NCBI GenBank assembly: GCA_010093705.1
Contig: MU006089.1
Span: 3,126,061 to 3,190,060 of the forward strand
DNA from: Patellaria atrata CBS 101060
Taxonomy: Eukaryota
DNA length: 64,000 nt
Direction of reading: 5' to 3'
Positions 3,607-63,848 of this stretch are shown in pieces. Under the pieces are notes generated by a model. That model saw only the letters and a program-made list of their open reading frames with translations, did not search any database and was not told where the DNA came from. Both the position numbers and the translations under genes were made by a program. How positions within the stretch are numbered: position 1 is the stretch's first letter; each line of letters starts with the position of its first letter.

Positions 3607-4591
3607 ATCAGTACGGATCGAATATGCCAAACATAATGTACAATGATCCTCAGCAACAGCAGACGTCCCCTCAGGCACCTTACGATACTGTGCAACCGTA
3701 CCAGTCACGGCAAACCGCTGCAGGACTCGATGTGCTATCGAACCAATTCAATGTTCCACAACAATATTATGTGCCAGGTGAAAGCGTCCCAACTAGTGAG
3801 CCCGCCAATGCTATTGCAACGCCAAATGTACCCTCGCAATATTCGTCGATCTCTTATACTTCGCAACAGACTCCTGCTGGACGAGAGTCTCTTGGTTCAC
3901 CATATGCGACAGGGATGTCGCAACACGCGCAAGGACAACCTCAAGGAGGGTACGACCAGTCCGCACAGCCCGACGATTTAGCTAAGGCGTACGAGGATTA
4001 TCAAGTTCAACTCAAGAAAGCTTTCAAGCAGGTTCATGACGGCCATCTCAGCGATGCTGGGAGGTTGATTGAACATTTGTCGAATTTTCTCGTCAGTCAC
4101 GCAGATTACTTTGGTAAGTTGGCTTGCGATTGAGCAAAATTGGCTTGCAGACTGAACATTGACCTTAGGCTTAGTTCGCGACATTGAGGGATTACATCAA
4201 GAAAGACTTGAGCTTTGGGAAAATTTCAACAACTGTTGGCTCGCACTTCTTCAGCGACAGAAAGATATGATGCAATCCATGGTTGATACAGGACAACGAC
4301 CAAATCCACCCGAGAGTCTCATGGATCAAGCATATCTGGAGTTCTTAGGGAAAGAAATCGTAAGGTTGTGCGATGTTATGGAGAAGCATGGGCTGGTTGA
4401 TTATCAACTCGGCATCTGGGAAGAAGAGATCATTGCGAGTAAGTGATTGCTATTGCGCAAAGAAATAATTGGTGCGCTAATAACGTCAAGTGATCACAAC
4501 TTGTCTCGACATGATCGAAAACAATCCAAATGTTCCCCTTTCGGAGCATTCACAAACCGCACCATCTGCCTCGACCTCTCGCAGACGATAG
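3273..4591 (+). CDS. Uncharacterised fungal protein: Q/S/Y/P-rich low-complexity N-terminus with polyQ, predicted helical C-terminal domain
   Basis: ATG at 3273 (MENNDRRQ). Introns 4114-4168 and 4439-4490 (both GTAAGT..AG) join the ORF pieces in frame: ...HADYF/GLVRD...WENFNNCWLALLQRQK...GLVDYQLGIWEEEIIA/MITTCLDMIE...RRR*. Stop TAG at 4589-4591. Confidence 0.8.
3555..3605 (+). repeat. (CAA)17 microsatellite encoding polyglutamine
   Basis: Uninterrupted CAA x17, in frame in the 3273 CDS. Confidence 0.97.
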
Positions 4592-5516
4592 AAACGTTGG
4601 CTCACACATTCGGCTTCACTCCACATATACACACACTCTATCTCTTTTGTTTTGGGTGGAACTTTGATCTTGGATGCATTGAATACTAGAAGAGCCTCTT
4701 TCCACTAGCATGATATCCCGGTTGCTTTAGAATTGCATGATTGTCCTTGCGGAAAGACGCTGCCAGATTTTCACCTCGAGACCGTCCGTAGTCATCGGGC
4801 GTTGAGTGGCTATGCTTCTGAATCATGGCGCGCCGTGTTTCCTTTGTTTTACAACCCCACATGAAGAATTTTGGGCTTCCTGATGGTCAGACGGAGTTTT
4901 GCATTTGTCAGGGATGGTTGGAAGATGGGGGGAAATATTCCAATGAGTTTATAGAAGGTAAAACTTGCATGGATGTATTGGCGACAGTGGCGTTCCAGCA
5001 AGACAGGCAAGATGTTTCGGTATTTGACTTTTTGTTTTTTTTTTGAGATATGATTGGGGAGCAAAGGAAGAGATGTGATTTTACGATGGTTGGGCAGGCT
5101 AGGGTAACAAAGAAAAGCATGAGGGTAACAGGTTAGGAAAAGTTTCTCTCTCAGGCTCGTACACATCTTTTCCTATGATCTCTTTTCGTAATCTCTTTCC
5201 ACTGCTTTGTACATATGGATCAACAAGTGTACAGTACAGCTTCTGTAACTTCCATTAGGTTAGGCCTAGTGTAACATTAGAAGGTTAGGTACCTTACTAC
5301 CTTACACATCCATTGGCAAATGAAGGCATCCTTTGACTGCGCTAAGGTAGTTCTAGCTCTTTAGTTACACTAGAATGCATTTCCGTTCCTGGATTCACAT
5401 CTAAATTTCTTGGCAAAGTCGTATGATTTGGGCTCTTTTTCAGCTCCTGGCATCCCGGTCTCCACTAAGGCTGTCGTAGCCTTAAGGTACCATACAGTCA
5501 TTTACCTTTGCTTACT

Positions 5517-5536
5517 GTACAGTACAGTACAGTACA
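5517..5536. repeat. (GTACA)4 pentanucleotide microsatellite
   Basis: gtacagtacagtacagtaca. Shorter copies of the same unit occur near 57-67, 5229-5239 and 6574-6589. Confidence 0.7.
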
Positions 5537-43817: not shown

Positions 43818-44082
43818 AAAGGAGTGTATTAACATTAAACACAACGCTTGCCGCCCACATTATGCATCCCCTTAGTCCTAAAACCCCCCAAAAAAGCGAA
43901 CGTATCTGTGCATTTTCCCATCCAGGTCACGCAAACCCAAAAAACCAACACCCACGCAATGCATCCATCAGCGCTCTAATACCACAATGATTGTAATGGC
44001 CGTCCAAAACCCTCCTAAAGGACTCGCCCATCCAGCTACCCCATAAAACCACCTCATAGAAGTAAGGTACCAGTAGCCCCAT

Positions 44083-45234
44083 CTAAATCATCCCCCTCCC
44101 CCTCTCCCTCCCAACCCCCTCACTCCCCGCACTCCCTCCCCCTCCCCTCCAACTCTCCCCCGTCCCCCCACTCCCCCTTTTCTCCTCCCACTCCTGTTCC
44201 CCAGGCCACCCATGAAACCCATCCACGCCATGGAACCCCTCGCCCCCATACCCATAACTATACCGTCCCGTCTCATCGTACCGGAGTCCATAGCTCTCGA
44301 CCGGCGGCGCCCCCTGCGCGATGCGGGTTTCGATGGTCCGCCGGCGTTCGCGGCGGCGCCCGAGGATGAAGGCCCCCAGGAAGGCGGCGATGAGGAAGAT
44401 TCCCGCGGGGATCCCGACGCCGATGGCGATTTGGGCTGTGGTTGTGAGACCGCTGGAGGGGGTTGGTGAGGCCGATGAGGATGGGGAGGTGGATGGGGAG
44501 GTGCGGGCTTCGTCTGTAGGTGAGGGGGAGGGGTTCGATGAAGGCGATGAGGTGGGAGGGGTTGAAGAGTTTGCCTCTGCTGATGGAGATGCTGAAGAGG
44601 ATGGAGCGGTGGAGGGAGCCTCGGATAGAGAGGGAGAGGGAGAGGGAGTACCGGATATAGTATCTAGTGCGAGGGAGGAGGGAACGGCCGGTGATGAGGA
44701 TGGCAACGAAGTTGTAGGACTTGCTGAGACGGCTGTTGTTCAAATTGTTAGCGAGATATTTTCATAGTCTTCCTCTCGAATATTGAATATGCGAATGTTT
44801 GCTCTGTTTCTGTTCTCCATGCACACAACACTAATTTCCTAGGAGCTCACTTACCAGCACAATATTGTTCCCCGTATTGAGCCACCACTGCTCCATCCGC
44901 TCCACAAGCTTGATTAGCACAGTCTCTGACACCGAACTGGAAGTTTGCAGCATTGCATATGCAGTTCTTGTCATCGATACCGCACCCGAATTGGGCGCTG
45001 GCAATAGTGAGCATGTTTCTGACACATGTTTGCTACATGAAGAATTAGCATCTCAACTTCCGAGAAACTGGATAAGAGATTCAAGCCAGAAGTAGGTCCT
45101 AATCTTAGAAAATCGAAAGCTTAGGAAGGTAAACTTACCCCACAAGCCGGCAAAGTGTTCACATCCTGAGCCACGACCCTCGCCGCCCACAGCCCCAAAA
45201 TTGCGAGCAACGAAACCTCATTTCTCAAAATCAT
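44083..45234 (-). CDS. CFEM-domain single-pass membrane protein
   Basis: Signal peptide. Introns 45138-45033 and 44854-44733 rebuild an 8-Cys CFEM domain (LPACG/QTCV...GCGIDDKNCICN...VRDCANQACG...EQYCA). Then an S/P/T stalk, TM AQIAIGVGIPAGIFLIAAFLGAFIL and RRRERRR. Confidence 0.87.
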
Positions 45235-46207
45235 GTCTGAGATATGACGTCCCAACTCCAGAAACGAAGTTTTCAGAAACGAGATCTCGCAATCCCTTTC
45301 CCAAAGTCCAAGGAGTGGCAAAGGCAAAACCAGGCGTGGAGAGAAAGGCCTCATATCTATATACTATACGTGTTTGAATCGGGTCCGGCCCTATGTGACG
45401 CAAATAGCTAGGGCATTCTTAATCTTCCGCATAGAGTAGGTCCCTTTGCTAAGTCGAAAACTACTTAAGTTATGCGCGTAATCTCGAGTTGCATATTAAA
45501 AGATGGCTGCCGGCCCAATCACCTAAATGCAGCCGATGCATGGCTAAAGTGCTACATTACCAGGAGAAGGTCATGCCGAAGGTAAGAGTACGGTATGGAC
45601 CATTGCGGACCATTACACGCTTGCTGAAACGTGGAAGGAGGACAGTGTCTTTGTGTTTGTAACCGTGTGGAATTTGCATCTTTCTTTTGGCTTTCCAGTC
45701 ATACAGAATGCTCCGAGTTTTTGAGCCTTTGTGATTTCAAAATAGGGGGTTCATATGGAGTTGGCGCTGATCATTGGTGTAGCGGGGTCGCGGGACGATC
45801 AAATCAGCATGGCGGGGTGTACTGCTGTGCTCCCATGCTTCTCAGCCCAAAGTCTCATCTGCAGACCCTCACACAAGTGGCGTATCTCTGAGTTGGGACG
45901 ACGAGATTCTAGAAAATGTTTGTGTTTCCTACATTCTGAAGCCAAAAGGGGTATCTCTCGTTTACATAACTAGTGTACGGTCTGGTCTAGCATCAATCCG
46001 TGTCTTAGATACCAGCTCTCAGACCAAGACGCCATACCTTCCAGTAGAATCCCAAAAGCGCCATTGCTCTCGCTTGGTTCGAACTAAGACTGTGTGTAGA
46101 AAGAAAAGATATATGTACGAATACATAAGTGAGGATCAAGGGAGTGATCATGATAATTTCACATAGTCCCGAATGTACCATTCAAGTATTTGCTAACTAT
46201 ACTTCAT

Positions 46208-48645
46208 TTATCGTAACCCGGATGATCCCCAAGACGGAGGAGGTTGCTGATGCATACGATTACCATAAACAGGATTCCAACTGTAAGAATTCGTGTTGCT
46301 GCTGGCGGCACTGTTTTGTGGAGGAGGTACGGTATACGACTGCGAATGTACAGCAGTCTGTACATTCGGTGCTGAGTGCTGTTGTGCCGGATTTGGTGCA
46401 GTTTGGTATTGCTGGAAAGTATTACTCTGAGTTCTTTGCGTCTGAGGTCCTTGAGATCTTGAATTTGCATCTAGTCCAATAATTAGCTTCGGTTATTCTA
46501 CCTTTATAACGTAGTACATACTGTAATTATTAGAATCGAGATACTGCTGTAGCTGGTATATCGGATGTTGATGTTGAATATTTTGATCCTGAGACGTTTC
46601 TTGTTGATTGCTCGTGTTCATCTGTGGAGCTGTCGCCATGTGCTGTTGCTGTTGCTGTTGGCCCCCTCTTGGCTGATTTGCATGGCTTTGTTGCACTGTA
46701 GTCCACTGCTGATTGGCATTGTTCTGCTGACTATTGCTACGCTGTGGCATTGTGGTGACATTTTGAGAGTTGCTACGCTGGACACTGGGCGTAGTTTGCT
46801 GGCTGGTGTTTCTATGCTGTTGCGCGACAGCAGCTTGAGCCGTTGCTCTAGCGTTAGATGCCTGGCTTGCTTGCGATATTTGAGAGTTGGCTCGAGAATG
46901 TGTGTTCTGATTACCTTGCGTGGGTTGTGGTCTACTCCTTGGGGGTGGTGGTGGCTGGGGTTGGTTAACTTGTGGGGCAGCAGTCCTCTTTGCAGGCGGT
47001 GGAGGAGGAATGGGAGTTGCTGTTACTTCTTCCTCTTGTGGAGGCTTTTTCGTATCTTCCAGTTGCTTAACTCTCTGCTCCGCTTCTAGTAATCTTGATT
47101 TCAACTGAGTAATCTCATTGACCGCTTCACGGAGTTGGCTTTCTAGTCCCCCGTTTGGACTAGTAATAGGTGCGGTGGTTGGAACTGGTACTGAAGCTGC
47201 AACTGTAGCTGGAGCTGGAGCTGAATGCTCTCTGGTGAGATCAATGGCTGAATTCTGCTGACTCGCGGGATGCGTTTTATGGAATACTGTTGCTTGAATT
47301 TTCGCAACAGAATAGACACAGGTCCGCATTTTCTCTACACACTCCTTACATTTAGGGCGAGCGGAGTCACACTGTAGAAAATCAGTGATTGAGGCATTTG
47401 AGTATGTTAATGTCAAAACATACCCTCACTCGTTTGATTCTACAAGAGTCACAGCTCTTATTCATCTTAGGGCCAATCACTTTTAACAATCCATTCCCCT
47501 CAAGACTAGGTTGCTGCTTGTCAGGGGTTGTGGTAGGAGCAGGATTGCTCTCAGGTGCAGGTTGCTCCTCATCAGTGCGTATAAGGTTGAGCAGGGAATG
47601 AAGGCTCTGCATTCTCAAGTCACTTTCAATCGTAGTGGATGATTGTCTTTCTTTCTCTGCTTCCCTTTTTTTACGTTTTTCTTCCTTTCGTTTCTCCTTT
47701 TCTGGATCAACGTCTTTCTGTTTTCTGGCTTCTGCCTTCTGAGCCTCAATTGCCGCAGCTTTCTCCGGATCTGTCAACTCTAATATCTTCATCCTTTTCG
47801 AATCTTTCCTTGGCGGGGGTGCCCTAGCTTCGTACGATCGATGAACGGGTACATGCCTATAGGTAACCTCTAGACTTTGTTTCGTTGCGGAGAATTTGAC
47901 AGCGAGAACACCGCGACAGTCATATACGGGCTTTCTCGCTCTTTTGCCTACGAAGGGTTAATATATATCATGCTTGCTTAATATCTTAGACTGCGATACC
48001 TTGAGTTAAAGCTTTCCCATTCGCAGCACGGTCTTTGTTGAGCAGAGAGTCATTACAATAATAGGAGAAGCGGAATGCCTCATCTTCTCTACTCTTCCAA
48101 TTATTATGAAAACTGTATCTATATCCATCTACTTTTTGTATTGAATTTACGACAGTCTTAGCAATAGCACGTTGCTTTTTCATAGCCTCCTTCTCATCCT
48201 GAGGCTGCTGATTATTGATCGCTTCCATGATGCTCATCGGCGTTACAGTGGTGCTGCTGGAAGTAGGACGTTGCTGTGGCCCTGCTGCATATTGAGCACT
48301 TGTACTAGAGCCATTCTGGTACCACTGGGATGGAGGGCCGTTGTTATCAGAGCGGGGAAGGTCGACTAAGAAGGATGTCCCAGGCCAGAAGGAGAGCTCG
48401 CAGGACGAGTGTTCAGCTTCCCTCTCTTCATCTTCCAAATATGCCTTCAATTGAGCTTCAAAGTCTTCGAGAGAGGCTACTTTACAACGCGTGATCTGAG
48501 ACTGAGGATCTTTGGCGGAACGACCGCGTGGCAATGATACAGGTCCATGTGTCCACGGTTCATCGGTTGTCGAGCTGGATCTGGTGTTTTGATTTTGGGC
48601 ATGTTGAGGAGTTATGGGTGTTATGGGAATATTGTAGTCATCCAT
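46208..48645 (-). CDS. Zn(II)2Cys6 transcription factor-like protein with an additional N-terminal C2H2-type (WRKY-GCM1-like) domain and a Q-rich C-terminus
   Basis: ATG at 48645. Introns 47999-47948, 47423-47372 and 46521-46471 join four exons in frame. Zinc cluster CDSCRIKRVR/CDSARPKCKECVEKMRTC, then a coiled coil (LESQLREAVNEITQLKSRLLEAEQRVKQLE). Confidence 0.85.
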
Positions 48646-49485
48646 CGTCCCAAGCAGCAAGCGCGCACCGGAGTAGTGGTAGGTATTATTTCACAGGTAA
48701 TAGAGAGGTTGCTGGCTACAGGTGCTTTACTCCGTACAGTACGAGGCCTGCAGCGTGCGCTTGTCATCCCTGACGAACTTGGGAGAGAAAGGTGTGGGAC
48801 AGACGATTTGGCACGGACTTTCTAGCCAGAAGAAGATAAGTGCTCTTCCAAGCCTTGCCTAAGCCGCATTTATCATCGCGCTGGTCTATTATCCAGCCAT
48901 CCTTCTTTTAGATTAGTTACATCTCTACGTGATAACTCACCTCCACAGCCACCTCACGTGCCTGCCCAGAGTCTCGGCCTTGGCAAAGTACCCTCTCTAA
49001 AAAGACACCGGACCTGCTCATGGGATTACATCACACTGCCTTATGCTCGCACACACCCATGCCAGCCATCCCATCTAGGGAGATCTACCTATGAATCGCC
49101 TTTGCGTATTACCTTAACTCTTCCCAGTCCAAAGTGCATACATCGGGGGCCTGTCCATACGTACCAACTATGTCTTCCCCTTATCCTATTACGATATTTA
49201 CGCTTCCCAAGATAAAAGCCGCTGCTGAGCTCCTAGAGTCTAATATAAAGCTAAGGAGACTAAGGTAATGAAATGGTAAGGTATTTCTTATACTTAGCAT
49301 GTCTAAGGCAGCTTCCTACTGTTCATCCAATTTCACACGATCATAGCTGTCTGACTTCACCATCTGCTCTCATATTCCCCTTATTGTGCCTCCCTCGTGC
49401 AAGACACCTACCCTCTGACTCCCTCTATACCATTCTATCAATATAGAATACTCTTAGCATTACATTGTGCAGATCCTATATCACC

Positions 49486-50712
49486 ATGAACTATCCTACA
49501 CTCAAGGCCTTTGGCCTTCAAGCGCAGCAGCATATTCAAGAAACTCAAGGCGAGCACGAAGCACGTAAAACAGCTGGATTTCCTGAATTTGAAGCAACTA
49601 TGCCTTTCCTACCTACTCGCTCGGGTTCCTTATCCGATAACCTGTCCTCCTACTTGGGGAAGCGGAACCCCTTCTATCGTAATGTAGAAGCAAACAAACA
49701 TACCGTCTGGTTGTTCGACAATACCGCATCTCGGCCTGCGCCCAATAAACCATGGCAAGCCGAGTTCGTTGCAGCATATTTTATTAAGAGTAGTGGCAGG
49801 GATGTTAGCACTATCGTGGCTGATATTGCTGAGAAGATCGGTATAGCGAAGGGCGACAAGGCCGAAGCTACCATCGCGGAGCGGATTCAACCACTACTCG
49901 ATACTATTTGTCCAGCTCATAGTGTCACTATCGATGCTGTGGGAGCCGGAATAAAACGTTTAGGACCCAGTAGTCGCGATGGTGTGAGCAATGATATTAT
50001 CCAGTTAAGAGGAGACTTTGCCGACGGGCATACCGCGATATCAGATGCCACTATCAGTGTGACACCGCAGCCTATGACAACTACATTTGCGGATGCGACA
50101 GGATGGGCTGTGATTAGTGATGTCGACGATACTATCAAGAAGACCATGACGGCTTCTCCGGTAGGGATTCTCAAGACTACCTTCGCGGATGACCCAGAGC
50201 CTATCGCTGGTATGCCAGAATTATACAAATACGTGGTCCAAAAGTTGGACAACCCGCCTTTCTGGTACCTCTCTGCCAGCCCTTACAACTTGTACACTTT
50301 TCTCCGCTCCTTTCGCGAAACGTATTACCCTCCTGGAACTCTTCTCCTCCGCGAAGCCTCATGGTGGAATCTTGCTGGATTCCTCGCATCTTTGACCCAG
50401 GGCACGCAAGCATACAAAGTTGATAACATGGAGAAGATACACAAAGATTTCCCTAAGCGTAAATTTTTATGCATAGGTGACAGCACTCAGTCGGACCCAG
50501 AAACTTACGGTGAGATGGCCAGGCGACATCCGGGATGGATTGGAGGAATATTCATCAGGAGAGTACAGAATGTCACCGCGACAGAGGGCAACGACCAAAA
50601 CCACTCAGAGCGGTTTGAGAAAGCCTTTAAGGATGTACCAACGAACATTTGGCATGTATTCGATGACCCATCGGAACTCTATGACTGGATTGACAACCTC
50701 TTGGCTGCTTAG
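49486..50712 (+). CDS. App1-type phosphatidate phosphatase catalytic-domain protein (HAD-like)
   Basis: VISDVDDTIK (DxDxT), YLSASPYNLY, IGDSTQSDPETY and IFIR. Intronless. Confidence 0.88.
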   Translation: MNYPTLKAFGLQAQQHIQETQGEHEARKTAGFPEFEATMPFLPTRSGSLSDNLSSYLGKRNPFYRNVEANKHTVWLFDNTASRPAPNKPWQAEFVAAYFIKSSGRDVSTIVADIAEKIGIAKGDKAEATIAERIQPLLDTICPAHSVTIDAVGAGIKRLGPSSRDGVSNDIIQLRGDFADGHTAISDATISVTPQPMTTTFADATGWAVISDVDDTIKKTMTASPVGILKTTFADDPEPIAGMPELYKYVVQKLDNPPFWYLSASPYNLYTFLRSFRETYYPPGTLLLREASWWNLAGFLASLTQGTQAYKVDNMEKIHKDFPKRKFLCIGDSTQSDPETYGEMARRHPGWIGGIFIRRVQNVTATEGNDQNHSERFEKAFKDVPTNIWHVFDDPSELYDWIDNLLAA

Positions 50713-51346
50713 ATACCCATTTTTACATGCATGAGGTCAATGTTTCCCTTTTTTTCTTTCCTGGGTGGTATTCTTCTGTTCCCGTCTTACAATAATCATT
50801 CTTTTTACCTCTTATCAGGGGTTTGTTTGACCCACGGCATTTTTAAAGAAACTATCTTTCACTGGTTTGATGTCATTTTACATCCGATCTTTTTGCATTA
50901 TAGTACAATATGTATACGCTCTGAATAGTATCTTTGAACAGGTTTCGACTTTTAAGAATGCAATTATTCGTTTTCTACATATTTACTGCGTTCCTCGTAC
51001 TCAGCGACATAAGTGTAATGAACGTCTCAATGATTGTCGTACGCACCGATGCTCCAGCGTTACTATGAATACTAGTCAACTTTGCTGAAGAAAACTAAAA
51101 GAGAAGCATCATACCGTCGAATCAGCTGCACTACACCGACAGTTACCCCCTTCGAAATTCAGACGACTGATAAGGGTCAGATGCTGAAGATCCTAGCCAA
51201 AACCGACTAGTCCATATCGGGCGTGTTGCATAAAATCTTCGAACATCGAGGGCGAGAAAACGCAATCGCTTGCAGAAATGGTTCAGCCTAGCTCAGCCCT
51301 ATCGTGATTAATACGAACCATCAGTTTGCATCGCGCGCCATCTATA

Positions 51347-51940
51347 CTAAAAGCTGATGTTCTTCCAGATCTTGATGTAGCTTACTACGTCATGCAACTC
51401 TAGCATCACCGGCAGCTCAACGGTTCCGTTCAACCTTGGCAGCTCGACGATCTCGTCTCCTGAGTCGAAACGGTTGCGGATGACCATCACGAGGTCCTTA
51501 TCGTTGAGCCCAGCGATGTACAGCTTGACCACCAACGGCCTCCATTTCTGCTCAAGGTCGTAATATATTCCCCTCGCATCCTGGGTATAGGTCGCTAGGT
51601 TGAGTTCGCCTTGCTCGAGGTCGGCGAGCTCATCGAGAGACAGCTCGTACGATGACGGTGGATCATGCTCGAATTTTTTCTCCAGCGCCTCGGTGCTTTT
51701 TTCGAACGTGTCCTTGTCCTCGTCCGGGAGCTGATCATACCAATCCTTTGCTTCGCCCACCAAATGGTCCTCTAAAAGTATCAAATTGTGTATGTCAGCT
51801 TCCTCCTCGAGAAGGTCGGGCAAATCGTCCATATAGAGGATTCTGGCTGTTAGGCGAAACCGCGTTGCCCATCCCACCGCATCTTCAGACTCCTGGCCAC
51901 CGAACTTTTCGAGTTTAAGAGGGGGTGCCGGTGGGGTCAT
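51347..51940 (-). CDS. Stand-alone Ty3/gypsy-type Gag capsid-like protein (197 aa)
   Basis: KFGGQESEDAVGWATRF, HLVGEAKDWY, TFEKSTEALEKKF, LADLEQGELNLATY (MHR-like) and LYIAGL in canonical order. Intact ORF. No CCHC knuckle, protease or pol downstream. Confidence 0.75.
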   Translation of the reverse strand: MTPPAPPLKLEKFGGQESEDAVGWATRFRLTARILYMDDLPDLLEEEADIHNLILLEDHLVGEAKDWYDQLPDEDKDTFEKSTEALEKKFEHDPPSSYELSLDELADLEQGELNLATYTQDARGIYYDLEQKWRPLVVKLYIAGLNDKDLVMVIRNRFDSGDEIVELPRLNGTVELPVMLELHDVVSYIKIWKNISF

Positions 51941-53121
51941 CGGACAAATGAATGTATTTAGTAACCGTCGGATTAGTAGTGATAAGAGTGAGTGATTTTT
52001 GACTTCTGTCAAGTATGGATATACGGAGAAAACATGTGTAGGTTAATTGACGATTCGCGTGGAATTGTTTGGAGTTATTGTTTAGAATAGATGTGAAACT
52101 ATACATGGTAAACTGCAACTGCCCTGCTGGACTATTATGAGTCTATTTGCGCAACTTAGGAGGGAAAGATCGAATGTATGTCAATGTGAAATTGGAAATC
52201 ACAGCGGAATCAACTGGGGCTCGCTGGAACGGTATCTCGTCCTAAACCACTACGGAACATCGGGTACTATGGAGTCTTTTTCTCGGTAGCGGGACATCCA
52301 ACCGTTCCTTACATTCGGAGTTCTGAGAGAAGCGTTCATAGAAAGAAAGAATGACTTATATAAAAAGGAATTCACTTCGGACAAGTATCTACCGTAGACA
52401 GCAACGATAATTTTGAAACACCATCGGACTTATACCTCACGTCTATAACATCAACACTCGTTATTCTGCTTGGCTTGGTCGGAAAATATTATTGCGTTCA
52501 CCATTTTCCGGGGCTCGATATCCTTGGGTGCATAAAAGGTTTTATTACGGTAGTCATCACATTATGTACGTATTGGTACATAAATGGAAGGAGCAAAAGC
52601 AAAGGGTCCCTATTCGAGAACAAACGATATTGAGTTAGGATAAGGGGGAATGTTGGGGAGCGTGGTGGGCAGGGCCCTTTGTCTAGTCGTAACGTCGTCT
52701 GACGGGATTAGCTAGACGAGGGACGAGCCAGAGATGGGGATAGAGAGGTGGAGGATTGGGGAGAAATGAATGGTGAGGAATGTTGCTGTGTATTCCTCCT
52801 GCTTAGTATTTCTCGAGGGCCATGAACTCGGGAGGTTATGGTAAGCTGAGGAATAAACTATTCGAGACGAACGGGGCATATAATCCGATTGAGGAAGCAC
52901 ATTGACAATGGTTATCAGAATGTCATTCACATTTCACTTGTTCTTTAAATGGTCCCCTAAGACTCTTCGAGCCCTGAGGTAAAGTTACAAGATTTGTGGA
53001 CTCACAGTCCGAGGAATGCACACGACTACATTAGATGCTATGTCGTAAACGGACAATTGAAAACAATTACAGGAAACATGCTGGAAAAAACTGGGCAATC
53101 GCATCTAAATTCATATATACC

Positions 53122-54707
53122 TCATCTTCGCACCGACTCGTGCGCCTTGAGCGGATCATCCCGATATGTATTCGGAGGTAATTCGTACTGCATTCCCGGA
53201 TTATACGGCTGCCAGTTACCCTGCATTTCAACAGGCGAGGTGGGACGTCCGTATGGCGCCTGCATCATCGGTGGAGGACTCGTGTTCATGGGAGTTCCCA
53301 TCCCCTGATGCTGCGTATACACCTCCGGGCCGTGATCGTAATATGGCTGCTGCGGATAGCCGTGATGCAGCGCAGGATTCATTCCCATCCCAGGGCCAGA
53401 AGCTCCGACAGGGCCTTGAGCTTGCTTGTTCTTCTTCGAACGCCGCCAAAAGAAGAAAAGGAGGCCGAGGATTAGCGCAACGGCTGCTGCTGTGCCGAGG
53501 CCGATGCCGACTGCTGCGCCGGTCGATAGACCATCATCGCCACCTTTGGAACTGGTAGAAGTTGGATCGGATGGATCGGTCCCTGTGGAATCTGCTGAGT
53601 CCCCTGTGCGAGTTGGGTCTGGTGCATCAGTATTCTCCGCGCCCCGCGTAATTGTTACCATTCGCGTTGACGTAACTGTTGTATCGGCATCAACGAAAGT
53701 TGTCGCAACCCGTTGCTCTTGAACCGTTCTTGTGAGGGTGTCCGTGCTAGTCAAAGTAGATACTATTGTCGTATCTATTGTGGTAGTTGCTGTTGCGGTC
53801 ACTGTTTCATAGATAGTGTTGGTGTTTTGCCTTTTTACGAGCAATCCGATCCTGGAAAGCTTCTCTGAAAGTGCGTCAAGGTTCGGAGACGTTAGAAGAG
53901 TCACAATCGCAGGATCAGACTGCGTTTTGGTACGGATCGGAGCGTAGATGGATTGTGTAAGAGGTAACTGATTTAATGTCGCATGTGCCCGTGGCTTTGC
54001 TCTTGCGGCAGCAGTCCGTTTGGCACGTCGCTCCTCTAATGTTGTAGTGCGGTCTACGACAACAGTAGCCGTATCGACATCTGATGCTGTCACCATTCTA
54101 GTACTGTATTCTGTCTGAGTAATAGTTTGGGTGATAAATTCTGTGTCGAAGGACGTGTGGTAGTCGTATTCCGAACTCCAGAAAGTGGACGTTATTGTCG
54201 AGGTTACTCTGCGACTCATTAGATTTTCATTATCCAAGAATGATTAAGAAGTACCTACTCTGGCGACACACAGCCGGTAGAACGACAAAACTCGAATTCA
54301 CTACAGCATCCACTGCTAGATGCAGGACAGCAGATGAATCCCGTCGCTTGACAGCAGTAATCGATATTGCCATTCGCACAGCAGATGCCGCATCCTGTAC
54401 ATGTACCACCTCCTGAACATGTTCGAATACCATTCGAATCGCAATCTCCCTGTCTCTTTTCTAATACCGACGGAGGGAGTGGAGAGGATCCAGGACGGAT
54501 TGTAGGTTGTATTTGAGCTTTGATTGTGGATGTTGATTGTGCTGAGGGATACAATTGTGGCCCATATTCTGCGACTAGGTTTTGGATTGCTGTAGCATTG
54601 TCAAAGTTCAAGTTGATTTGTAATTCAAGGTCGTCTAGAAGTGTAGAAGTCGTGAAACTTATGAGAGAGAGAAGGGCTATAAGGCGAATATATGAAGGCG
54701 TCTCCAT
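53122..54707 (-). CDS. Secretory-pathway single-pass membrane protein: Cys-rich domain, Thr-rich stalk, Mid2-like TM, Pro/Gln/Tyr tail
   Basis: Signal peptide METPSYIRLIALLSLISF. Cys cluster after LEKR. Intron 54258-54209 joins the two ORFs. TM GLSTGAAVGIGLGTAAAVALILGLLFFFWRR. Confidence 0.82.
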
Positions 54708-56963
54708 TGCCCTTTTGCGCTTTGCACTCTCTTTTCGAAGAGAGTACAATAGGTTCTGTCACTGCAGGACTTCCATCAAGAAGAAAAGTCCGTCGAGAAA
54801 TCCAGATCGGTTGAAATTGAGGTGGATACCGTACGATCAACGGTTTTCCAAAGGGATGCAGGGCGGTACCCTGTGTTCCGGCGCGTAGACATGATAAATT
54901 TATAAGCGTACCTCCATCTGGGACGTGCTGGCGGACATTTCTGCCAATGATACAAGATGTCTTTGGACCCCACGATGCTTTGGTTTCTGTTTCTGCTCGG
55001 GTAGTCGAAAACAAAGTAAAGGTTTGGGGGACTCACGGGAAGGATTTTCTCTAACCCAAAGTCCAGATGGGATACTAGTGGGATGAGCTTTGATACGTTG
55101 ATAAAACAAAATGAATTCCGCCAGACAAGGTTATGCATCCGAAAGAAATGTCTCGAACCAACCACATCTCCGGAAGAATGGTCGACCCCACAGATCCAAA
55201 CACCTTATCCAGACATATCAGGCGTTTGAATGCCGTAAAAGAAGATTTTGTACTCCGTACAGTAACGATGTCTGTTTCTGCACTTCTCTGTAGTTACGCT
55301 TGCCATATACTCATCGGGGACACTCGGAGCTAGATATCTGAAGGTTTCTCCTGTATATGAAGGTGTTGTACAATACTGGACAGTAAAGCAGGACCACAGC
55401 TTTTAATAAGTCCTTCGATTTGTGAGGTCTGCTCTTCATCCGGTTCCGCGGGGTCTGGACCTGGTTTAAGAGCATCGTTTAGTACCCCGACCTGTGCCGA
55501 TAAGACTTTCTTATGTGCTAGCCATAACAGCTGAAGATGATCGATACCTAGTGATACTTATTAGCACGCTTAGTTCTAGTTCTAACGCATAATAAGACTA
55601 GCTAACAGTTTGGCGTTTCGACCCTAAGGAAGCTTGTACTTAACGAATATCTGGAGATTTAATAAGAGAACTGTGAACAGCCTCGTACTACTGATGTGCT
55701 ATAGACATTACCTTATAGTTGTATAGACCTGATGTAAAATGAGAAGGAATGACTTTCCATTAGATTCTTAAATGAAAAGAGTCATCGGGAAATTGGTAAG
55801 GGAATCGGTAAGGTGCAACTTCAGAACGGCTCGCGCGAGACAACTTAGAAGATACCTATTCGTGTATAAGAATAGGGTATCCCCACTCTGGTCGACACAA
55901 AAACTTCGGGTGGGTCGGGTGAGCTTATGTGTATTCTAGTTGTAACATTCCGGTCTAATTTAGGGTACCTCTCACCGCGTCTCAACTTTAAATCGACCGT
56001 CACACCCAAAAACTTACAGTACAATCATGCAGATAGTTGATTACGCAACCAATCACCCTCTATACTCCTCACGCTGACAGTCCCTAAATTCCCTATGGAC
56101 CGCTCAATGGAGATGCCATCCTCTTTCTACTACCCTTAGAGCTGGTCCCTAGAACGAGATCAACGATTTCAAATGAGGGAAATATCAGCTCATGATTCCC
56201 TAGTACAGATATTATTGATCGTTTATCTTAAAAACAAGGAACAACAGCAGGAGAAAGAGAAAAAGAAAGGGACTTATGATATTGAAGCGTACACATACTC
56301 GCCTCTTAATGTTAGTTATAGAACATTTCCAAAGGCGTTAAGGGGCTCTTCCAAGACACTCTCAATGACCATTTGTCCCAAATTCCATAGTTCTGTTAGA
56401 TCGTTACCTTTATTCCAAACTTCCTCAGCTTAGGGATACTGAACAGTATGGAGTAGAGGGCTGATGTCCCGGCAAAATCAACGAGTCACACTGTTAGAAC
56501 TAACTTGTCTCATGAAACAACTCGGACATGGCCATCAATCTTTTGTACAGCAGTAGCGTTCTTTATCTACAACAAAACATTGATATGCATTTGGGAGTTG
56601 CTTTAAAACCCACAATGCATTGCATCTTACCTGGTGTACATACCCCGCAGATGTACTTATATACATACCTCTTCGGCATTGCGAACAGCGCCGGACACAG
56701 CGTCTTTAATACTCTATACCCTTGATAAAAATAGTATGCAAGGCCCATCACATTCCATTATTAGCTGTACCTTGCCTCAATACGTCACTTAGAGCTATTC
56801 TACGGGCTAAATCCTTAGTATATAACGATGCAGCCCAGAATGGTCGCTACAATTTTTCCTTGTACTGTTACTTTACAATTCCGGATCATACGCCGTATAC
56901 GAGGGTACTGGACCAGCAGTTCATATAGTTCTTGAGAATCGAATCACGTTACGTCCCGCCGCC

Positions 56964-58386
56964 ATGGCTTCGAGTACGCGGCGTCTTGATCAATTGGCTG
57001 CATCAGTCTCCTCTTCTGCAGCCATTTTAGGGGAATACCTCGAATCCCGAAACTTACCTCAACCTTCCGTTAATGTGGGTGGTCTAGCGGGATATTCGGG
57101 TTTGCCGCCTGATATTTCGACGGCAAGGAGAAGTCTGCAGGAATCTGTGCTCGAACTAGCTTACCTAGCTTCTGGCCCTCAGGAATACATGATTCGGTAC
57201 ACCACTGAAGTGCGTTTTCAATTCTGTATCTACATGCTATACCCTGATCTCTGTTGCAGTATGTGGGGATTACCGCGTTGCGGTGGATTTATCACTTCAG
57301 AATTTTCGAACATGTTCCACTGGATGGAGTGGTATCTTATAAAGAGCTTGCTAAATTAGCTGGTCAAGATGAAAGAACATTAAAAAGGATTGTTAGGCGC
57401 GCGATCCTGAATAGATTCTTCATTGAGCCACGCCCAGGTTATATCGCGCATACGAGCTCAACTGCACTCTTACTGAAAGATTCTGATGTTCGGGACATGG
57501 TAGGTCTAATGATTGAGGAAGGCTTTGATTCTAGTACCAGGTATTCGGAAGCCTACGAAAAATGGGGTCCAAGCAATAGCGCTACAGAGACCGCATTCCA
57601 GTTAGCTTTTCAAACAGATCTTAAGTATTTTGATTGGCTAGAGCAGAGACCCGAAAATTTGCGTCGTTTTGGAGGTATGATGAAAGCTCATGGCACCAAT
57701 GAGAGCTATTCTAGCGAAAACTTCGTCAAAGTCTTCAACTGGAGTTTGATCGGAGAGGGTAAAGTAGTGGATGTAAGTAGGAAAGTATCCATCTACCAAT
57801 TTGAGAACTGATAATAGAAGATCGGCGGCGGACTTGGGCACATGAGCATTGCCATCGCAAAGGAGTTCCCGAACATCAAGTTCGTCGTGCAAGACTTCCC
57901 CGATACTGCAAAGCAGGGAGCCGAACGTTGCTCTGAAGAGCTTAGAGACAGAATCTCTTTCGAAGGTTATGATTTTTTTAACCCACAGCCAGTCGAGGGA
58001 GCGGACATATATATGCTCAAAGCGGTATTACATGATCATCCCGATCCTGACGTAGAAAAGATAATCAGAAACACGGTTACAGCCATGCGGCCAGGATCGA
58101 GGATCCTCATAATTGACGGTGTCCTCCCTGAACCAGGTGCAATGCATCCAGTTGAAGAACGCGCTGTCAGGTAGGTGCATCCCGATTCGATGTTGTGGAT
58201 GGCTTGGATCTCACCAGCTACAGGAGCCTTGATCTTCAGATGGGTATGTTCTTCAACGCCGGCGAAAGAGACCCAGAGCAATGGTGCAGCGTTATCGCCA
58301 ACTCTGATCCAAGATTGAAGGTCAAAAGTATTAACAGGGTTCCGGGAAATGTTAGTTCTGGTATAGAAGTAGTGTTCGAACCCTAA
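56964..58386 (+). CDS. SAM-dependent O-methyltransferase (Methyltransf_2, fungal secondary-metabolism type)
   Basis: Introns 57210-57259, 57773-57820 and 58171-58223. Motifs VVD/IGGGLGH, VVQD, YDFFNPQP, VLHDHPD and NAGERD. Confidence 0.92.
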
Positions 58387-58643
58387 AATGTGAGAGAAGA
58401 GCGTAAAACACGTTCTATATCGAAACGTTAAGTTGTATCCCCTATAAACCTAAAATGGAAGATGGGGATTTTAATCTATGAATAATAGAGATCATCATGA
58501 TAGTCCTTGTATGTCGTTCACGCAGTTTAAATCAACTGGTGCTATTACATTATATGATTGATGAAGCCACAATAACACATCGAGAAACGTAGAAAAGAGA
58601 CTCATAATACGCATGAAGGGATTCCGAATCGCTATTGATCGCT

Positions 58644-59492
58644 TTATTTTTGGCCCACTGCAACCAGAGCCTTCACCCTCACCCTCTCGATAACGTCCTC
58701 TTCCTCGACAAACCAGCCTTCGATCTCTCCCATCTCCATCTCCGCTACAACAACATCCTGAGCATCATCCCACCTGTCTTCATCGTACTGTGTCCACCCA
58801 CCTGCAGGTTCGCCGTAATACCCCCAAGCCCAACGTGACCAAGTACAGAAGCAATCTTGCTCTATCCAAGCCTCTTTTTCAATGAACTCCACGTTCTCCC
58901 ACGCAGCGTCCCTAACGATGTTCTGGACAAGCTGCGTATCGTTGACCTGATCTCTAGCTAACCTTGGTGGTAGAGGCGCATCAGCTCCCCGAGTGCTGTA
59001 GTGTGCTTTAGTTAGCGCCTTAATCCACGGTTTTTCAGTCCATACAGCAACCGCAGCTGTCCCGCCGGGTTTCAACGTGCGCCAGATGTGCTTTGCTGCA
59101 CCGATGGCATCCGGATGGTTATCTAGGGCGAAGCCAGTATAGCTGATGTCTATACTCTCGTCAGGGAAATAGAGTTCAGCCGGATCGACCTCTGATGCCA
59201 TCACAGGCCAGTCTCCGTGCTTGGCCAGCTTTGATTTGAGGTGTCTGAAGAGCGTGGTGTTGTTGTCGGTAGCTATGATCTTGAGGCCGGTAGGCGGATC
59301 GGAGGCGATGACTTCCTCGGTCATGGAGCCGGACCCGCACCCGTTGTCATGGAATATGGTTGTGGAAGTAAGCTCAGGAAGGTGTGGGAGGATATCGCCA
59401 GCGAGAGCGTTAGTGACATTGTCGGTGAGTTTCTGGAGAGTTTCGCCGGTGATCTTGGGAAGTTGTTTGGGTATGAACATTGAACGAGACAT
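58644..59492 (-). CDS. Class I SAM-dependent methyltransferase
   Basis: 282-aa ORF with motif I FHDNGCGSG, IIATD, FPDESID and RTLKPGG. Confidence 0.85.
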   Translation of the reverse strand: MSRSMFIPKQLPKITGETLQKLTDNVTNALAGDILPHLPELTSTTIFHDNGCGSGSMTEEVIASDPPTGLKIIATDNNTTLFRHLKSKLAKHGDWPVMASEVDPAELYFPDESIDISYTGFALDNHPDAIGAAKHIWRTLKPGGTAAVAVWTEKPWIKALTKAHYSTRGADAPLPPRLARDQVNDTQLVQNIVRDAAWENVEFIEKEAWIEQDCFCTWSRWAWGYYGEPAGGWTQYDEDRWDDAQDVVVAEMEMGEIEGWFVEEEDVIERVRVKALVAVGQK

Positions 59493-61050
59493 ATCTGCTG
59501 ACTAGGATGCGTAAATAGATAGAGCCAAAAGCAAGTAGTAATGACCGGTTATACAGTCTTTTATGGCAGATTATCTACTGGCTCTGGAAGTGATACGAGT
59601 CAGAAATTGAATGGATTTATATCCTGCATAGCTCTTATATAAGTAATGTATATCCCGTCTCAGGTATTCATCTTGTACGCGTTTCGCTTTGCTGGATTCT
59701 CCTTGGCTACTCCTAGAAGGCCATTTGTCACACACATCGATGCTTTGTGGTCTTCTTGAGCCATTAGTACGGCGCAGAAGTGAGAAAGTAGTCGGGATTG
59801 CGTGGGATCACCTGCGGTGTGTTCCATTCTCTAGGTTATGTATCCGTGCCGAATCTTCATCATACTTGAGATTAGGTGGAAAGGGTGAAGCTCCATACTA
59901 TATTCCTCACCGCAACGATGGATAAGGAAGATAAAAACGTATACATTAGACGTCATCTCGGGTCTACCATACATCTATAGTTTAGCTCTGTCAATATCCC
60001 GGGCGATGGGGTCTCCGATGTACTTTGTGCACCAGTTCGCATAGCGGACGAAATGGCGCGGTAACCTTAAATCCATCTAGATTTCGAAGCTCCATTTATG
60101 ATATACAATGAGATCCAGGTGCATAGCTTCCGGATTTACTGTAGATAGCAGTTCAGAGCTCACACAAATCCCTAGGGTATAATTTATGCTCAATGGTCGG
60201 TTTGACAACGTTGGTTGTTGTTGATAGAAATGTTCTGAATGGCTGAACCTAGACCTAGGTCTGATCAGTATCTTCACTAGCTGTAAGTATGCTAGCTCGG
60301 GAGTCTTTTCAGAGCTTAATTTCAACCCATCGTTCTATATGAATTCCTATCTCTTGTATTATCTTTACAATACCTTTCTTATTTCGATAATCTATTCGCG
60401 GATTGTGCGCATTTGCTAACGTAGAGGCCATTCAAAGCAGGGTTTTCAATCTCCATTGCATCAAAGCTCTTCATCTATGTGGATGGAGTACTAGCAGCAT
60501 AAACGGGAATCGATACTCACCAACACGATTTCTCTGCGCCTAATATAACGTCGGGAACTGGGAGATTCACAAGTCCACTGTTTAAGATGATGATTGTGAG
60601 GAATCTGTAAAAGGCGGATTGAAAATGCGGATTAAGACTGGTGAACCCAATGCTTTAACCATGCTTATATTCTTGATCAGAACTTTATAATATTTCTTGA
60701 CAATCAGTCTCTTTCATTTGCCGTAGATTACTCTTAACTGCTCTCCGTGCTTCCTTATATACTTTACGCTCTGTCCGCCCCTCCCCTTCCGCATATCTAT
60801 TCGATCTTCTAAGTTGACACCTTTCCCATTCGTCTTCTCCATCACCTCTAGGTAAAAAAAAACTTTAGTATACTTAGAATTCCATTTTCCTATATAGCAA
60901 AATAATTCTCTACTGCTATTCTATGGGCTTCTGTTTAATATCACCAAGCAGAGCAAAAAAAAAAAAAAAAGGAATCTCTCTTTTAATACGGCCCGTCCCT
61001 CCGTATCTCCCTCAGGGCACAATCCTGAGACCTCCCCCCATTCTCGGCTT

Positions 61051-61147
61051 TGGCAACGCCGGGAATCGAACCCGTGGCGCCGGGGAGACCACAACACTTG
61101 GATGACATGATGCAAACCTGGGGCTCACACCACTTGACCACCGTGTG
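61051..61147 (-). tRNA. Degenerate intron-containing tRNA-like gene (apparent anticodon TGC); probable pseudo-tRNA
   Basis: A-box-like TGGTCAAGTGG, perfect B-box/T-loop GGTTCGATTCC, anticodon arm CCAGG-TTTGCA-[~25 nt]-C-CCCGG and 3' CGTTGCCA. The acceptor stem pairs poorly and the other stems carry mismatches. Confidence 0.6.
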
Positions 61148-61959
61148 GATTTATATGAAAGCTTTTTATCTATTCAAGAATATATAAGGACCTGATCTGA
61201 TTTCCGGTGGGGTAAGTTAGGCGATGCGGAAGTCGTGTAGATTTGCTGCGAGCTTTGCAGTAGGCGATGTCTACTCTTCCACTCACAACTATTATAGAGT
61301 TTCATGATCAATCACTTTGATCTTGTAGGTAGTTTATGTGAGTCGCCTGAAGCAGGTATCATACTCGTTATACGAAAGTGTCAAGTTTCATTCCAAAAGC
61401 TCTTATCAGGAAGACAGGAACGTATGACGATTTGGGTGTGAAATCCTTTTTGCCCACCAACGACAAGACTACAGCATCCTTCTGCATACCGTGGATAGAG
61501 GTTGTTCGCATTATTTATCATTCAATCCTCTTTGAGCAATTCAATATCCTTTATCGTATCAAAGAATACCTGATAAAGTAAGACTTGTGGTTACAGGAAA
61601 GAAGGCACTATTCATCGTATGCGACACGATGCTGTATCTCCGGATGTACAGAAGACTCATTAACTTAAGCACATTCCAAAGCGGCAGAGGCATACTCGAC
61701 ACTTGATGAAGACTAACGAAGGCTTTTTCACTCAGTCGAACCCAAGCTTATCATATCATAACTCCAATTGAACGAATACTAAATATTCACTCTTTGATAA
61801 ATCAACATCACAGATGTACCAGTACAACGCCCAGCGCTTGAATCTCTCAGGCAATAGTCCAATCATATTTCTCCATTGACGATCCTTCATCATCTCGCAT
61901 GAAAGCGAGGCAAAAGCAAACAGACTCATCCACGGTACTCACACTCATGGCGACAGGAA

Positions 61960-63848
61960 TCACAAGATCAACGCCCGCTTGCCTTCCTGAACATGCACGC
62001 CGTGAAACCCGAACCCAATAGGACCTTCACAATCCGCTCTTCCAACCTCCTTCATTGTTCTAGCATCTAAACAAAGGAGATAACTCTTCCCCCTATATCC
62101 ATTCAGTACAACGCTCAACAACACCCCGGCGTCCTCATCCTCAGCACCCGGGTCGCGTATAAAGACAGGTTCTCCTGGACTCTGGCCATTCTCGCTCCAT
62201 ATCAGATGCCTCTCCTGCTCATTGGGATACTGCGAATCAAACTTCACCAGCGCGTCCACGAAGGTGCTGATACCCCGGTCTAGAACACCGTACGTGTATC
62301 TGTGCGGTCTGGTCAGGAATGCCGGGTTGATATTCGGTAGCTCGGGTGTCCAGCGTATCGATGTCGAGTACAGGATTTCCGCGGTCCGTGGCTTACCTGC
62401 TACTGCTTTCGTATCCTGGATTGTGTGTGCTGCTGTTACTGTGGTAGAAGAGGGAACAGCGGGTAGTCGAAACCGCCGGAATGATGGACGCGTCGAGTCG
62501 CCCTTCACACCGACAAATTGCAGCGCACCCGGTGTCGTGGACAGCAGTTGGTTGTAATAGAACCGGTGCAAGATATCCAGATTGTCATATGCCACCAACT
62601 CAGCTACAATATTAATCCCATCCTTACCTTTTTCCTCCCAAGCATTAACGGTATGAAAACAGAAGAACGCTGGCGTTGTATATGTCGCCACTAAACCCTT
62701 CCCATGCCGCCTATCGATGACATACCACATCGCATCCCTTGAGGAATCCCACGGCCCAATAGCGTCGAGGATGTTGCGGTACCAGAGCACCGAGAGGCCA
62801 CCGGCACTGAAGTGCGAGCCCCAGATGCAGAGGAGGACATAGTTCTCCGTTAACAGGATCGAGTGGAGGTATGCAGGTGGCGCGGTTATGGATGCGAGAA
62901 TCTCGGTTTCTCCGGTCGATGTTAGGGTGCGGAAGACACGGTATGTAGAGCTACCACCGAATTCGAGGTTGAAGTTGTAGACGTCGCCGGTCTGGGGATC
63001 AGATTTAGCGTGTGCAGCTGCAAGGGGTCCCTTGAGAAGGGGGTGCAGAACTCGCTGGTTGGTGATACCAATGGGTTCGAGGGTAGACGGATCGATGCGG
63101 GCGAAGGAGGATGCATCGGTTCTGAGGTGGAGGGTCTGGATACCAGAGGAGTGCCCACTGGGTTCGTCGGATGGGCTGGTAATGCCAGGAGCATTGGGCG
63201 ATAGTGTCACGCCGATGTTCGCGTCGCTCTTGTTGTAGACAAGCGGTCCGCTAGCAACTTTGAATGTACTCATCACCTTCTTGAAGTAGCTCTGACACGG
63301 ATCCCGCTTTTGGGCGAAGCTGAAGCCCTCAAGGGTACCTGTTCGTCGGATCTTCTCGAGTTGCTCGTCGACGGTGTGGCGGGAGTTGTAGAAGACTTTT
63401 ACGGGCGAGTTTGGTTCTGAGGGGGCAATGATTTCGAAGCGGTGGACTTGGTTGTTGCCGTCGAACCAATGGGACTTTTCAAAGACTGTGCCGTTAGCTG
63501 TAGGGACTTTGTAGCCGCCTGGGCCGGTGCGGTAGAGGGTTCCGGCTGCATAGGCGGGAATGTTGCCTTGGACTGCGAGCTCGATCTGAGTCCGCTGTTC
63601 GTAGTCGTTGTTGAACTGCTCAGATTAGCATTTGGAGGAAAGGGGTGCTCGTTACAGCATACGCCTATATCATTTTGCCACCCGTTATACGGCTGTAATA
63701 ACTCTTCCTTTCCTTTCGTCTCATTCTGAGAAGCTGGAACTGACCGTATGCTGAAGGTACTAAACCTCTTCGACAACCGGTCAGTAGAGTTTCTCCGCTT
63801 TTTCACCCCATTCAACTCCTTCGGCTTTCCGCTCCCGAATATCGCCAT
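61960..63848 (-). CDS. Carotenoid cleavage oxygenase (RPE65 family), CAO-2/CarT torulene-oxygenase-like
   Basis: ATG at 63848, intron 63662-63616. Motifs GTLYRTGPG, SHWFDG, SFAQKRDPC and GEPVF, plus four Fe-ligand His (AAHAKSD, YLHS, FCFHTVNAWE, FGFHG). Confidence 0.9.

Follow-up and report, generated by a model that had tools for sequence, protein, structure and literature searches.

A capsid-only Gag derivative of probable Ty3/gypsy type in the ascomycete Patellaria atrata: candidate host gene or undecayed relic

Retroelement capsid genes have repeatedly become host genes, as with Arc, PNMA, PEG10, Fv1, and yeast DRT2. Is a solitary gag-like open reading frame (ORF) in the fungus Patellaria atrata CBS 101060 (Dothideomycetes, Patellariales) another such gene, or is it a leftover piece of a retrotransposon? 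The ORF lies on contig MU006089.1 (assembly GCA_010093705.1), within a stretch of 64,000 nucleotides (positions 3,126,061 to 3,190,060) that is called the window herein; unless another locus is named, all positions below are those of the window. The ORF, whose protein is named P0001, encodes a capsid-only derivative of a long terminal repeat (LTR) retrotransposon Gag of the Retrotrans_gag (Ty3/gypsy-type) kind. Domestication of P0001 is no more than plausible. About equal likelihood is given to an undecayed relic and to a host gene that was retained, most probably as a restriction factor that poisons capsids.

On the minus strand, the ORF runs intact from the ATG at 51940 to the TAG ending at 51347 and contains 197 codons. 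The stop-free frame is 231 codons long, with 34 additional codons upstream of the ATG that hold no further ATG. After the TAG, the same frame stays open for 12 codons and shuts again at the 13th. The exact P0001 sequence is present in NCBI, UniRef, and nr, and the ORF had therefore been annotated already. The possibility that P0001 is part of a larger spliced gene was rejected, since the NCBI product is exactly these 197 amino acids (aa) and the N-termini of the relatives align with its start.

Capsid-type motifs follow each other in the protein in the order KFGG at residue 12, LVGEAKDW at residue 60, DTFEKSTEALEKKF at residue 77, LEQGELNLATY at residue 108, and YIAGL at residue 141. These motifs match the nine columns that are invariant among P0001 and the eight relatives described below (F13, G15, L56, G62, A64, F90, Q110, Y118, and D147), and P0001 keeps 9/9 of these residues. 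A complete Gag carries a CCHC knuckle or another basic RNA-binding part, and P0001 carries neither. It has no cysteine at all, so a CCHC knuckle is absent, and no C-x2-C-x4-H-x4-C pattern was found in the six frames of 50000-53200. The protein has an isoelectric point of 4.36, with 43 aspartate and glutamate residues vs 20 lysine and arginine residues and a net charge of -23. The initial annotation of this DNA, which was made from the letters themselves, had described an uninterrupted ORF of 197 aa with capsid-type motifs in this order, without a CCHC knuckle, strongly acidic, and with the frame closing 13 codons past the stop. All of these descriptions were borne out; the minus strand is an addition to that annotation, which had named no strand.

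The Gag identity was measured at the protein family level. The Pfam family Retrotrans_gag (PF03732) matched residues 59-146 over profile positions 6-96 of 97, with 27.6 bits (E 3.6e-6) vs a curated gathering cut-off of 24.1 bits for the whole-protein score. The Pfam family Ty3_capsid (PF19259) matched residues 49-129 below its cut-off (20.7 vs 29.1 bits, E 3.1e-4), and two relatives likewise stayed under this cut-off with 25.8 and 26.5 bits. In a feature search of the ESM-Atlas, the ten best family-bearing look-alikes all belonged to the family or clan of the top one, Retrotrans_gag. When the family profile was compared with solved structures, its positions 92-149 aligned to the capsid (CA)-like C-terminal domain (CTD) of PEG10 (7lga, E 0.0096), which was the best capsid match in that search.

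The HMMER search at E<=0.001 returned 11 proteins: P0001 itself, eight Gag relatives, and two bacterial repeat proteins that matched over about 22-25 residues and were treated as noise. The two matches that carry a name came from Diplodia and from a metagenome-assembled genome of Chaenotheca. The eight relatives share 26-34% identity with P0001 and align from their own N-termini across P0001 residues about 5-160, and six of the eight contain Retrotrans_gag at E<=0.001. CCHC knuckles are present in P0002, P0005, and P0011, with an aspartyl protease (PR) also in P0002 and P0011. At the locus of the closest relative (L001), gag, CCHC, and PR are joined in one ORF, followed by an RVT_1 reverse transcriptase (RT) ORF with an FMDD box and no integrase between them; this contig is 6.5 kb long and ends inside the RT, short of any RNase H and integrase in the order gag-PR-RT-RH-INT. 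The gene order of L001, together with the CCHC and PR of the relatives, suggests that the family consists of genuine LTR-retrotransposon Gags with a Ty3/gypsy-like order.

Two further features of the relatives were observed. At 4158-6470 (+) of L001, the RT frame is open for about 600 codons ahead of the RT; this stretch is charged, of low complexity, and without a recognisable domain, and is either a long PR-RT linker or non-coding. A second search with the family profile (A2), built from an alignment trimmed of the relatives' long C-terminal parts (443 profile positions when untrimmed), added six short relatives only. P0003, P0006, P0008, and P0010 are short gag-only predicted proteins of 159-188 aa without CCHC. 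In Diplodia intermedia, which is likewise a Dothideomycete, the short gag-only relative (P0010) has been annotated as a gene, and its contig is 1.5 Mb long. These short proteins may be mere fragments, or they may represent capsid-only genes of a kind that recurs.

The AlphaFold2 (AF2) model built on a 15-sequence alignment had a predicted local distance difference test (pLDDT) value of 78.5 and a predicted template modelling score (pTM) of 0.69, with nine helices within residues 21-159. The pLDDT was about 77-97 for residues 7-93 and 42-50 for the tail at residues 161-197. The model was aligned to 48,161 chains by VIA-align, which is independent of Foldseek, and 50 rows were listed. Retroelement capsid domains occupied ranks 1-16 of 16 and made up 27 of the 50 listed rows. 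The top match was dArc1 (6s7x), with Z 9.3-9.5 and a root-mean-square deviation of 2.7-2.8 over 75 residues, followed by Drt2 (Z 8.2), PEG10 (8.0-8.1), Arc (8.0), the Rous sarcoma virus CA (7.6), and PNMA2 (7.5); the copia capsid (Z 7.4) aligned across P0001 residues 7..170. When the Foldseek list was re-aligned, ranks 1-14 were capsids, including the Ty1' CA-CTD (Z 8.1) and Ty1 p22 (Z 7.6).

Some results weigh against the structural assignment. Z values of 7-9.5 are within the range (<8-13) where common helical arrangements can produce matches; the structural weight therefore lies in the uniform capsid identity of the matches taken together with the sequence evidence. Foldseek gave no match at E<=0.001, its ten best rows being all dArc1, dArc2, PNMA2, or PEG10 at E 0.073-0.5, and the Ty3 capsid entry itself was absent from the structural match lists. 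When the second lobe (residues 94-160) was searched alone, the structural matches were generic helical repeats only, and its identity as a CA-CTD therefore rests on Pfam and on the profile match to PEG10 7lga. A homodimer prediction for two copies of residues 5-165, run without the family alignment and without controls, scored 0.00 vs a mark of 0.32, which speaks neither for nor against a dimer. Overall, P0001 is predicted to adopt the two-lobed all-helical CA fold of Arc, PNMA, and PEG10, with the second lobe assigned mainly by sequence. The lack of any capsid-fold hit, which the initial annotation had named as grounds for giving up the idea, did not occur, as retroelement capsids were the best structural matches. 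Its Ty3/gypsy label stood in part: Retrotrans_gag, the Arc/PEG10/PNMA-type structures, and the gag-PR-RT order of the relative agree with it, whereas Ty3_capsid remained below its cut-off.

The preservation of the capsid region was measured by a leave-one-out comparison, in which the profile used to score a member excluded that member, and three close sequences were excluded jointly. P0001 scored 108.8 bits, the third of nine (range 68.1-121.0). For P0002 and P0011, which are Gags of elements, the N-terminal Gag portion gave 86.7 and 112.3 bits. Judged by these scores, P0001 appears to fit the family profile as well as Gags borne by elements. The GC content at the three codon positions of the ORF is 0.61/0.30/0.67 vs 0.41-0.43 in the flanks. 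The net charge of -23 compares with -2 to -6 over the same region in 8/8 relatives, and residues 41-93, with a net charge of -14, hold most of the excess negative charge. At the C-terminal end, tblastn matched P0002 residues 2-177 as far as position 51383. Homology ceases near residue 186, about 11 codons ahead of the stop. P0001 begins at the ancestral Gag N-terminus and terminates just past the second capsid lobe.

The ORF sits in a 2.4-kb interval of a gene-dense stretch, and its surroundings were searched for the remainder of an element. No LTR pair was found in 44000-60000: direct repeats there do not exceed 35 nt (71% identity), and the ORF does not lie between the copies of any of them. 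The longest inverted repeat in the same region is 27 nt at 78%, again with none bracketing the ORF, and capture by a DNA transposon or Helitron was rejected for want of terminal inverted repeats beyond this length. When six relatives (as gag, gag-CCHC, and gag-CCHC-PR) were compared with 49000-54000 by tblastn, the ORF was the only match, all others being at E>5. The 51 other large stop-to-stop ORFs of the window contain no RT, integrase, RNase H, or transposase domain; the domains found among them include DEAD helicase, ELO, M28 peptidase, F-box, methyltransferases, and RPE65. The tRNA scan of the window was empty, as was the Rfam scan of 48000-56000. The indices of repeat-induced point mutation (RIP) for the ORF are 0.63 for TpA/ApT and 1.11 for (CpA+TpG)/(ApC+GpT), with the flanks close to the window average. 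A scan for sigma-70 promoters and intrinsic terminators gave counts at the level of shuffled sequence; these are bacterial models and the host is a eukaryote. The marks of a resident LTR element are thus missing: LTR-like repeats are absent from 44000-60000, PR, RT, and integrase are absent from the flanks and the window by tblastn or Pfam, and the sequence is unique in the DNA contigs described below. The picture drawn by the initial annotation, of a stand-alone capsid-only Gag derivative between two host genes with no LTR pair and no RIP decay, agrees with these results, as no nucleocapsid (NC), PR, pol, or LTRs were detected around the ORF. The host gene on one side is an App1 gene by its Pfam match, and on the other side is an ORF for a Ser/Thr-rich membrane protein without a Pfam family.

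The copy number was examined in the window and in sequencing data. The ORF is the sole copy in the window, the next tblastn match having E 4.4. Two runs, the only ones found to contain the sequence, were taken as DNA, as their contigs of 10-13 kb span intergenic sequence. In these runs, the ORF and its two flanks are spanned without a single difference by contigs of 10.6 and 13.1 kb, whose depth is similar to that of neighbouring contigs (323.6 vs 318.1; 456.6 vs 455.5). Since copies sharing 31-mers would have broken these contigs, a near-identical copy elsewhere in the genome is not expected. The initial annotation had held that many near-identical copies inside full-length elements would speak for a recent transposon fragment, and the unbroken contigs at single depth disfavour this. 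At the protein level, P0001 is a singleton, and its 90% cluster has one member. The ORF is intact, appears to be single-copy, and lies outside any element, as do co-opted gag genes in the sense of Wang and Han 2021; that sense also asks for syntenic orthologs in other species or families, for purifying selection (dN/dS below 1), and for expression. The positions of the ORF, of its parts, and of its neighbours are collected in Table 1.

Table 1 Positions of the capsid-only ORF, its parts, and the neighbouring features in the window.
Feature	Position	Strand	Evidence and remarks
App1-type phosphatidate phosphatase gene	49486..50712	+	Pfam APP1_cat E 1.9e-49; 100% identical to a P. atrata protein
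3' flank, 634 bp, shared with the converging App1 gene	50713..51346		linker, CCHC, protease, and pol absent from all frames
Capsid-only Gag derivative P0001	51347..51940	-	ORF of 197 codons + TAG; Pfam; exact sequence in NCBI/UniRef/nr
N-terminal capsid lobe, residues 7-93, predicted helical bundle	51662..51922	-	AF2; VIA-align (dArc1 Z 9.3-9.5; Drt2, Ty1', Arc, PEG10, and PNMA2 Z 7.5-8.2); net charge -14 in residues 41-93
Second capsid lobe (CA-CTD equivalent), residues 94-160	51461..51661	-	LxQG...Y and YIAGLND motifs, Pfam, profile
Low-confidence tail, residues 161-197	51350..51460	-	pLDDT 42-50; homology until about residue 186
5' flank, 1181 bp	51941..53121		no LTR-like repeat, tRNA, or Rfam match; holds upstream ORF 51915-52106 (-)
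365-aa Ser/Thr-rich ORF with one hydrophobic segment	53122..54219	-	no Pfam family; reads as a single-pass membrane protein

Several neighbouring features were also observed. The annotated App1 protein of P. atrata is 444 aa long vs 408 aa for the ORF here, and the roughly 36 extra residues presumably come from an upstream exon or start. At 54255-54707 (-), a 150-aa ORF has a signal-peptide-like N-terminus, a Cys-rich C-terminal half, and no Pfam family; its end and the start of the 365-aa ORF, which lies downstream on that strand, are 35 nt apart, and the two may be exons of one gene for a secreted or membrane protein. Three successive Gln/Pro/Ser-rich ORFs of 278/136/219 aa without Pfam families at 46493-48645 (-) look like exons of one gene. 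The 136-aa ORF ends in a short Cys-x2-Cys...Cys stretch that is suggestive of a fungal zinc-cluster DNA-binding motif. A small metabolic gene group may be present within 56800-63700, where three coding regions are near one another: a fragment of an O-methyltransferase (57818-58171 +), a methyltransferase of the ubiE/COQ5 type (58647-59501 -), and a carotenoid oxygenase of the RPE65 type (61963-63624 -).

P0001 was then compared with known gag-derived genes. In S. cerevisiae, Ty1' is restricted by DRT2, a domesticated gag gene of Ty1' origin that codes for the capsid CTD (PMC10951436). DRT2 and Ty1 p22/p18 resemble P0001 as fungal stand-alone gag-derived genes that code for capsid only, without NC, PR, or pol, and the predicted fold of P0001 appears related to those of Drt2, the Ty1' CA-CTD, and p22 (PDB 9rxy, 9rxw, 7nlh; Z values above). 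The difference is that DRT2 and p22 are of Ty1/copia origin and contain the CA C-terminal domain only, whereas P0001 is of the Retrotrans_gag kind, contains both lobes, and is far more acidic. DRT2 also sits in a transposon relic locus and has demonstrated expression and restriction activity, whereas P0001 has no relic context and is known from its sequence.

Wang and Han 2021 (PMC8321522) describe three fungal gag co-options: Crtg12 and Crtg13 from Copia in Dothideomycetes, and Crtg14 from Bel-Pao in Tremellomycetes. These are single-copy gag-only fungal genes like P0001, two of them in the class of P. atrata, and the supplement coordinates suggest about 185-215 codons, similar to P0001. They differ in their Copia or Bel-Pao origin and in being defined by syntenic orthologs across families, and are compared here by their description. 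PMC8321522 reports no Ty3/gypsy-derived co-option in fungi, the examined part of its supplement does not contain the name Patellaria, and no Ty3/gypsy-type gag co-option in fungi was found in the literature searched. The animal genes Arc/dArc1, PNMA2, and PEG10/RTL share the two-lobed capsid fold predicted for P0001 and are solo genes without pol. They are of independent animal origin, with 10-21% identity in structural alignments; their conservation and expression are proven, as is capsid formation for some of them, whereas all that is known of P0001 comes from DNA and protein letters. The fungal element Gags (P0002/L001, P0011, and P0005) are homologous to P0001 over residues 5-160 and share its N-terminal start and the invariant residues. 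In contrast to P0001, they have CCHC, PR (P0002 and P0011), an RT ORF (L001), and a near-neutral charge as given above.

What, then, is P0001 at present? A chance ORF or a protein unrelated to Gag might be suggested by the single-sequence search of the PDB, which gave no capsid and only weak DnaK-type matches (best E 0.39), and by the pLDDT of 31.4 for AF2 from the single sequence. Both count against the capsid identity, but Retrotrans_gag above the curated cut-off, eight independent Gag relatives aligned over residues 5-160, the leave-one-out score, and top structural ranks that are all capsids refute this explanation for practical purposes. Gag-only non-autonomous LTR elements are known in plants, and P0001 could be the coding part of such an element (TR-GAG-like) or of another mobile unit, as the ORF holds an entire CA between a start and a stop of its own. 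Within 44000-60000 it is not bracketed by terminal repeats, whether direct or inverted, the window lacks tRNA genes, and the sequence is unique in the DNA assemblies, which makes a mobile unit very improbable. A host role outside defence, of the Arc/PNMA/RTL8 type, in which the lobes would self-assemble into particles or serve as a scaffold or adaptor, is improbable to a lesser degree. Both lobes are kept, as in the capsid-forming dArc1 and PNMA2, whereas Ty1 p22 and Drt2 are CTD only; dArc1 is the best structural match; and PNMA2 and dArc1 gave whole-length Foldseek matches with 142-200 aligned columns. Against such a role, P0001 lacks an RNA-binding segment, its extreme negative charge would oppose the binding of cargo RNA and perhaps self-assembly, and no particle-forming co-opted Gag in fungi was found in the literature searched.

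The two explanations that carry most of the weight are a non-functional relic and a retained host gene that restricts retrotransposons. For the relic, an LTR insertion would have lost its LTRs, NC, PR, and pol by deletion, with the gag piece still open because the insertion is recent; this is a real possibility that falls somewhat short of an even chance. Several results weigh against retention and fit the relic. No ortholog was found in any searched collection: a word-index search passed 1/161 candidates, which was P0001 itself; the best non-self match of an exhaustive HMMER search of 1.84 billion representatives had 32% identity and E 1.6e-6; the A2 profile search gave eight proteins at E<=0.001 among 4136 candidates and no ortholog; and a scan of metagenome contigs with P0001 gave 595 pattern stretches and 0 relatives. 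The copy-number case is drawn from assembly behaviour rather than from a genome count, and leaves room for paralogues that have diverged or for a parent element elsewhere in the genome. The same picture would result from a single recent insertion that deletions have trimmed. The stop soon after the end of homology is as expected for a deletion breakpoint that runs into a chance stop, the last 37 residues are poorly modelled, and the relatives include the Gags of real elements. The start context of the ATG is unremarkable, with C at position -3, and an out-of-frame upstream ORF of 63 codons (51915-52106, -) overlaps the ATG. The codon-usage fit of P0001 is 0.013 vs 0.006 +/- 0.011 for host ORFs, which is uninformative because the bias in the P. 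atrata genome is very weak. Fungal annotations contain many solo "gag domain-containing" hypothetical proteins, most of which are generally regarded as transposon debris. The lack of orthologs says little in itself, since the best non-self match of the neighbouring App1 is only at 64% identity and no close relative of P. atrata is in the collections. Twelve new species of Patellaria have lately been described (PMC11767155). If the relic were young, a recently active family would be expected, yet the contigs are unbroken at single depth, and no protein within 50% identity was found among about 15 billion clustered proteins, to which the proteins annotated in this genome belong. In the flanks of 634 and 1181 bp, no remnant of pol, PR, CCHC, or LTR was detected, and the relic therefore requires a clean deletion on each side. 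P0001 preserves the family-invariant residues and the profile fit in full, and the strong charge shift occurred without damage to the frame. A piece old enough to have lost its element and its family would, if neutral, very probably contain stops or frameshifts, which favours maintenance. We infer an exapted gene rather than a decaying fragment, because the capsid determinants are kept as in element Gags while the rest of the element is gone. Retention as a host gene, over all roles, is given roughly one half of the weight.

For the retained gene, the proposed mechanism is a dominant-negative one. By analogy with Ty1 p22, DRT2, and Fv1, the capsid lobes of P0001 would allow it to bind the Gag of related retrotransposons or to assemble together with that Gag. 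Without an RNA-binding part and with its high negative charge, P0001 would then spoil particle assembly or genome packaging, and the outcome would be dominant-negative restriction of the related retrotransposons. Fv1, a solo host gene of the mouse derived from ERV-L gag that targets incoming capsids, is the classical model for this mechanism; it is mammalian and much larger. A retained gene acting as a capsid-poisoning restriction factor in this way is proposed tentatively. The more specific proposal, that P0001 would be the first Ty3/gypsy-type Gag exaptation in a fungus, lineage-restricted, selected to its present acidity, and acting as a decoy that blocks RNA packaging or shell closure as an independent two-lobed counterpart of DRT2/p22, is rather unlikely when taken as a whole.

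Few captured capsid genes have been described in fungi, and those in the available parts of PMC8321522 and PMC10951436 come from Copia or Bel-Pao. If P0001 is debris, it shows how cleanly a gag piece can remain and be annotated as a gene. If P0001 is maintained, it would be an independent case, a Ty3/gypsy-type capsid gene in a filamentous ascomycete, which would be set apart from the known fungal cases by the superfamily it came from, by the presence of both lobes, and by its extreme acidity. This negative charge offers a simple idea of how a capsid may be turned into an assembly poison.

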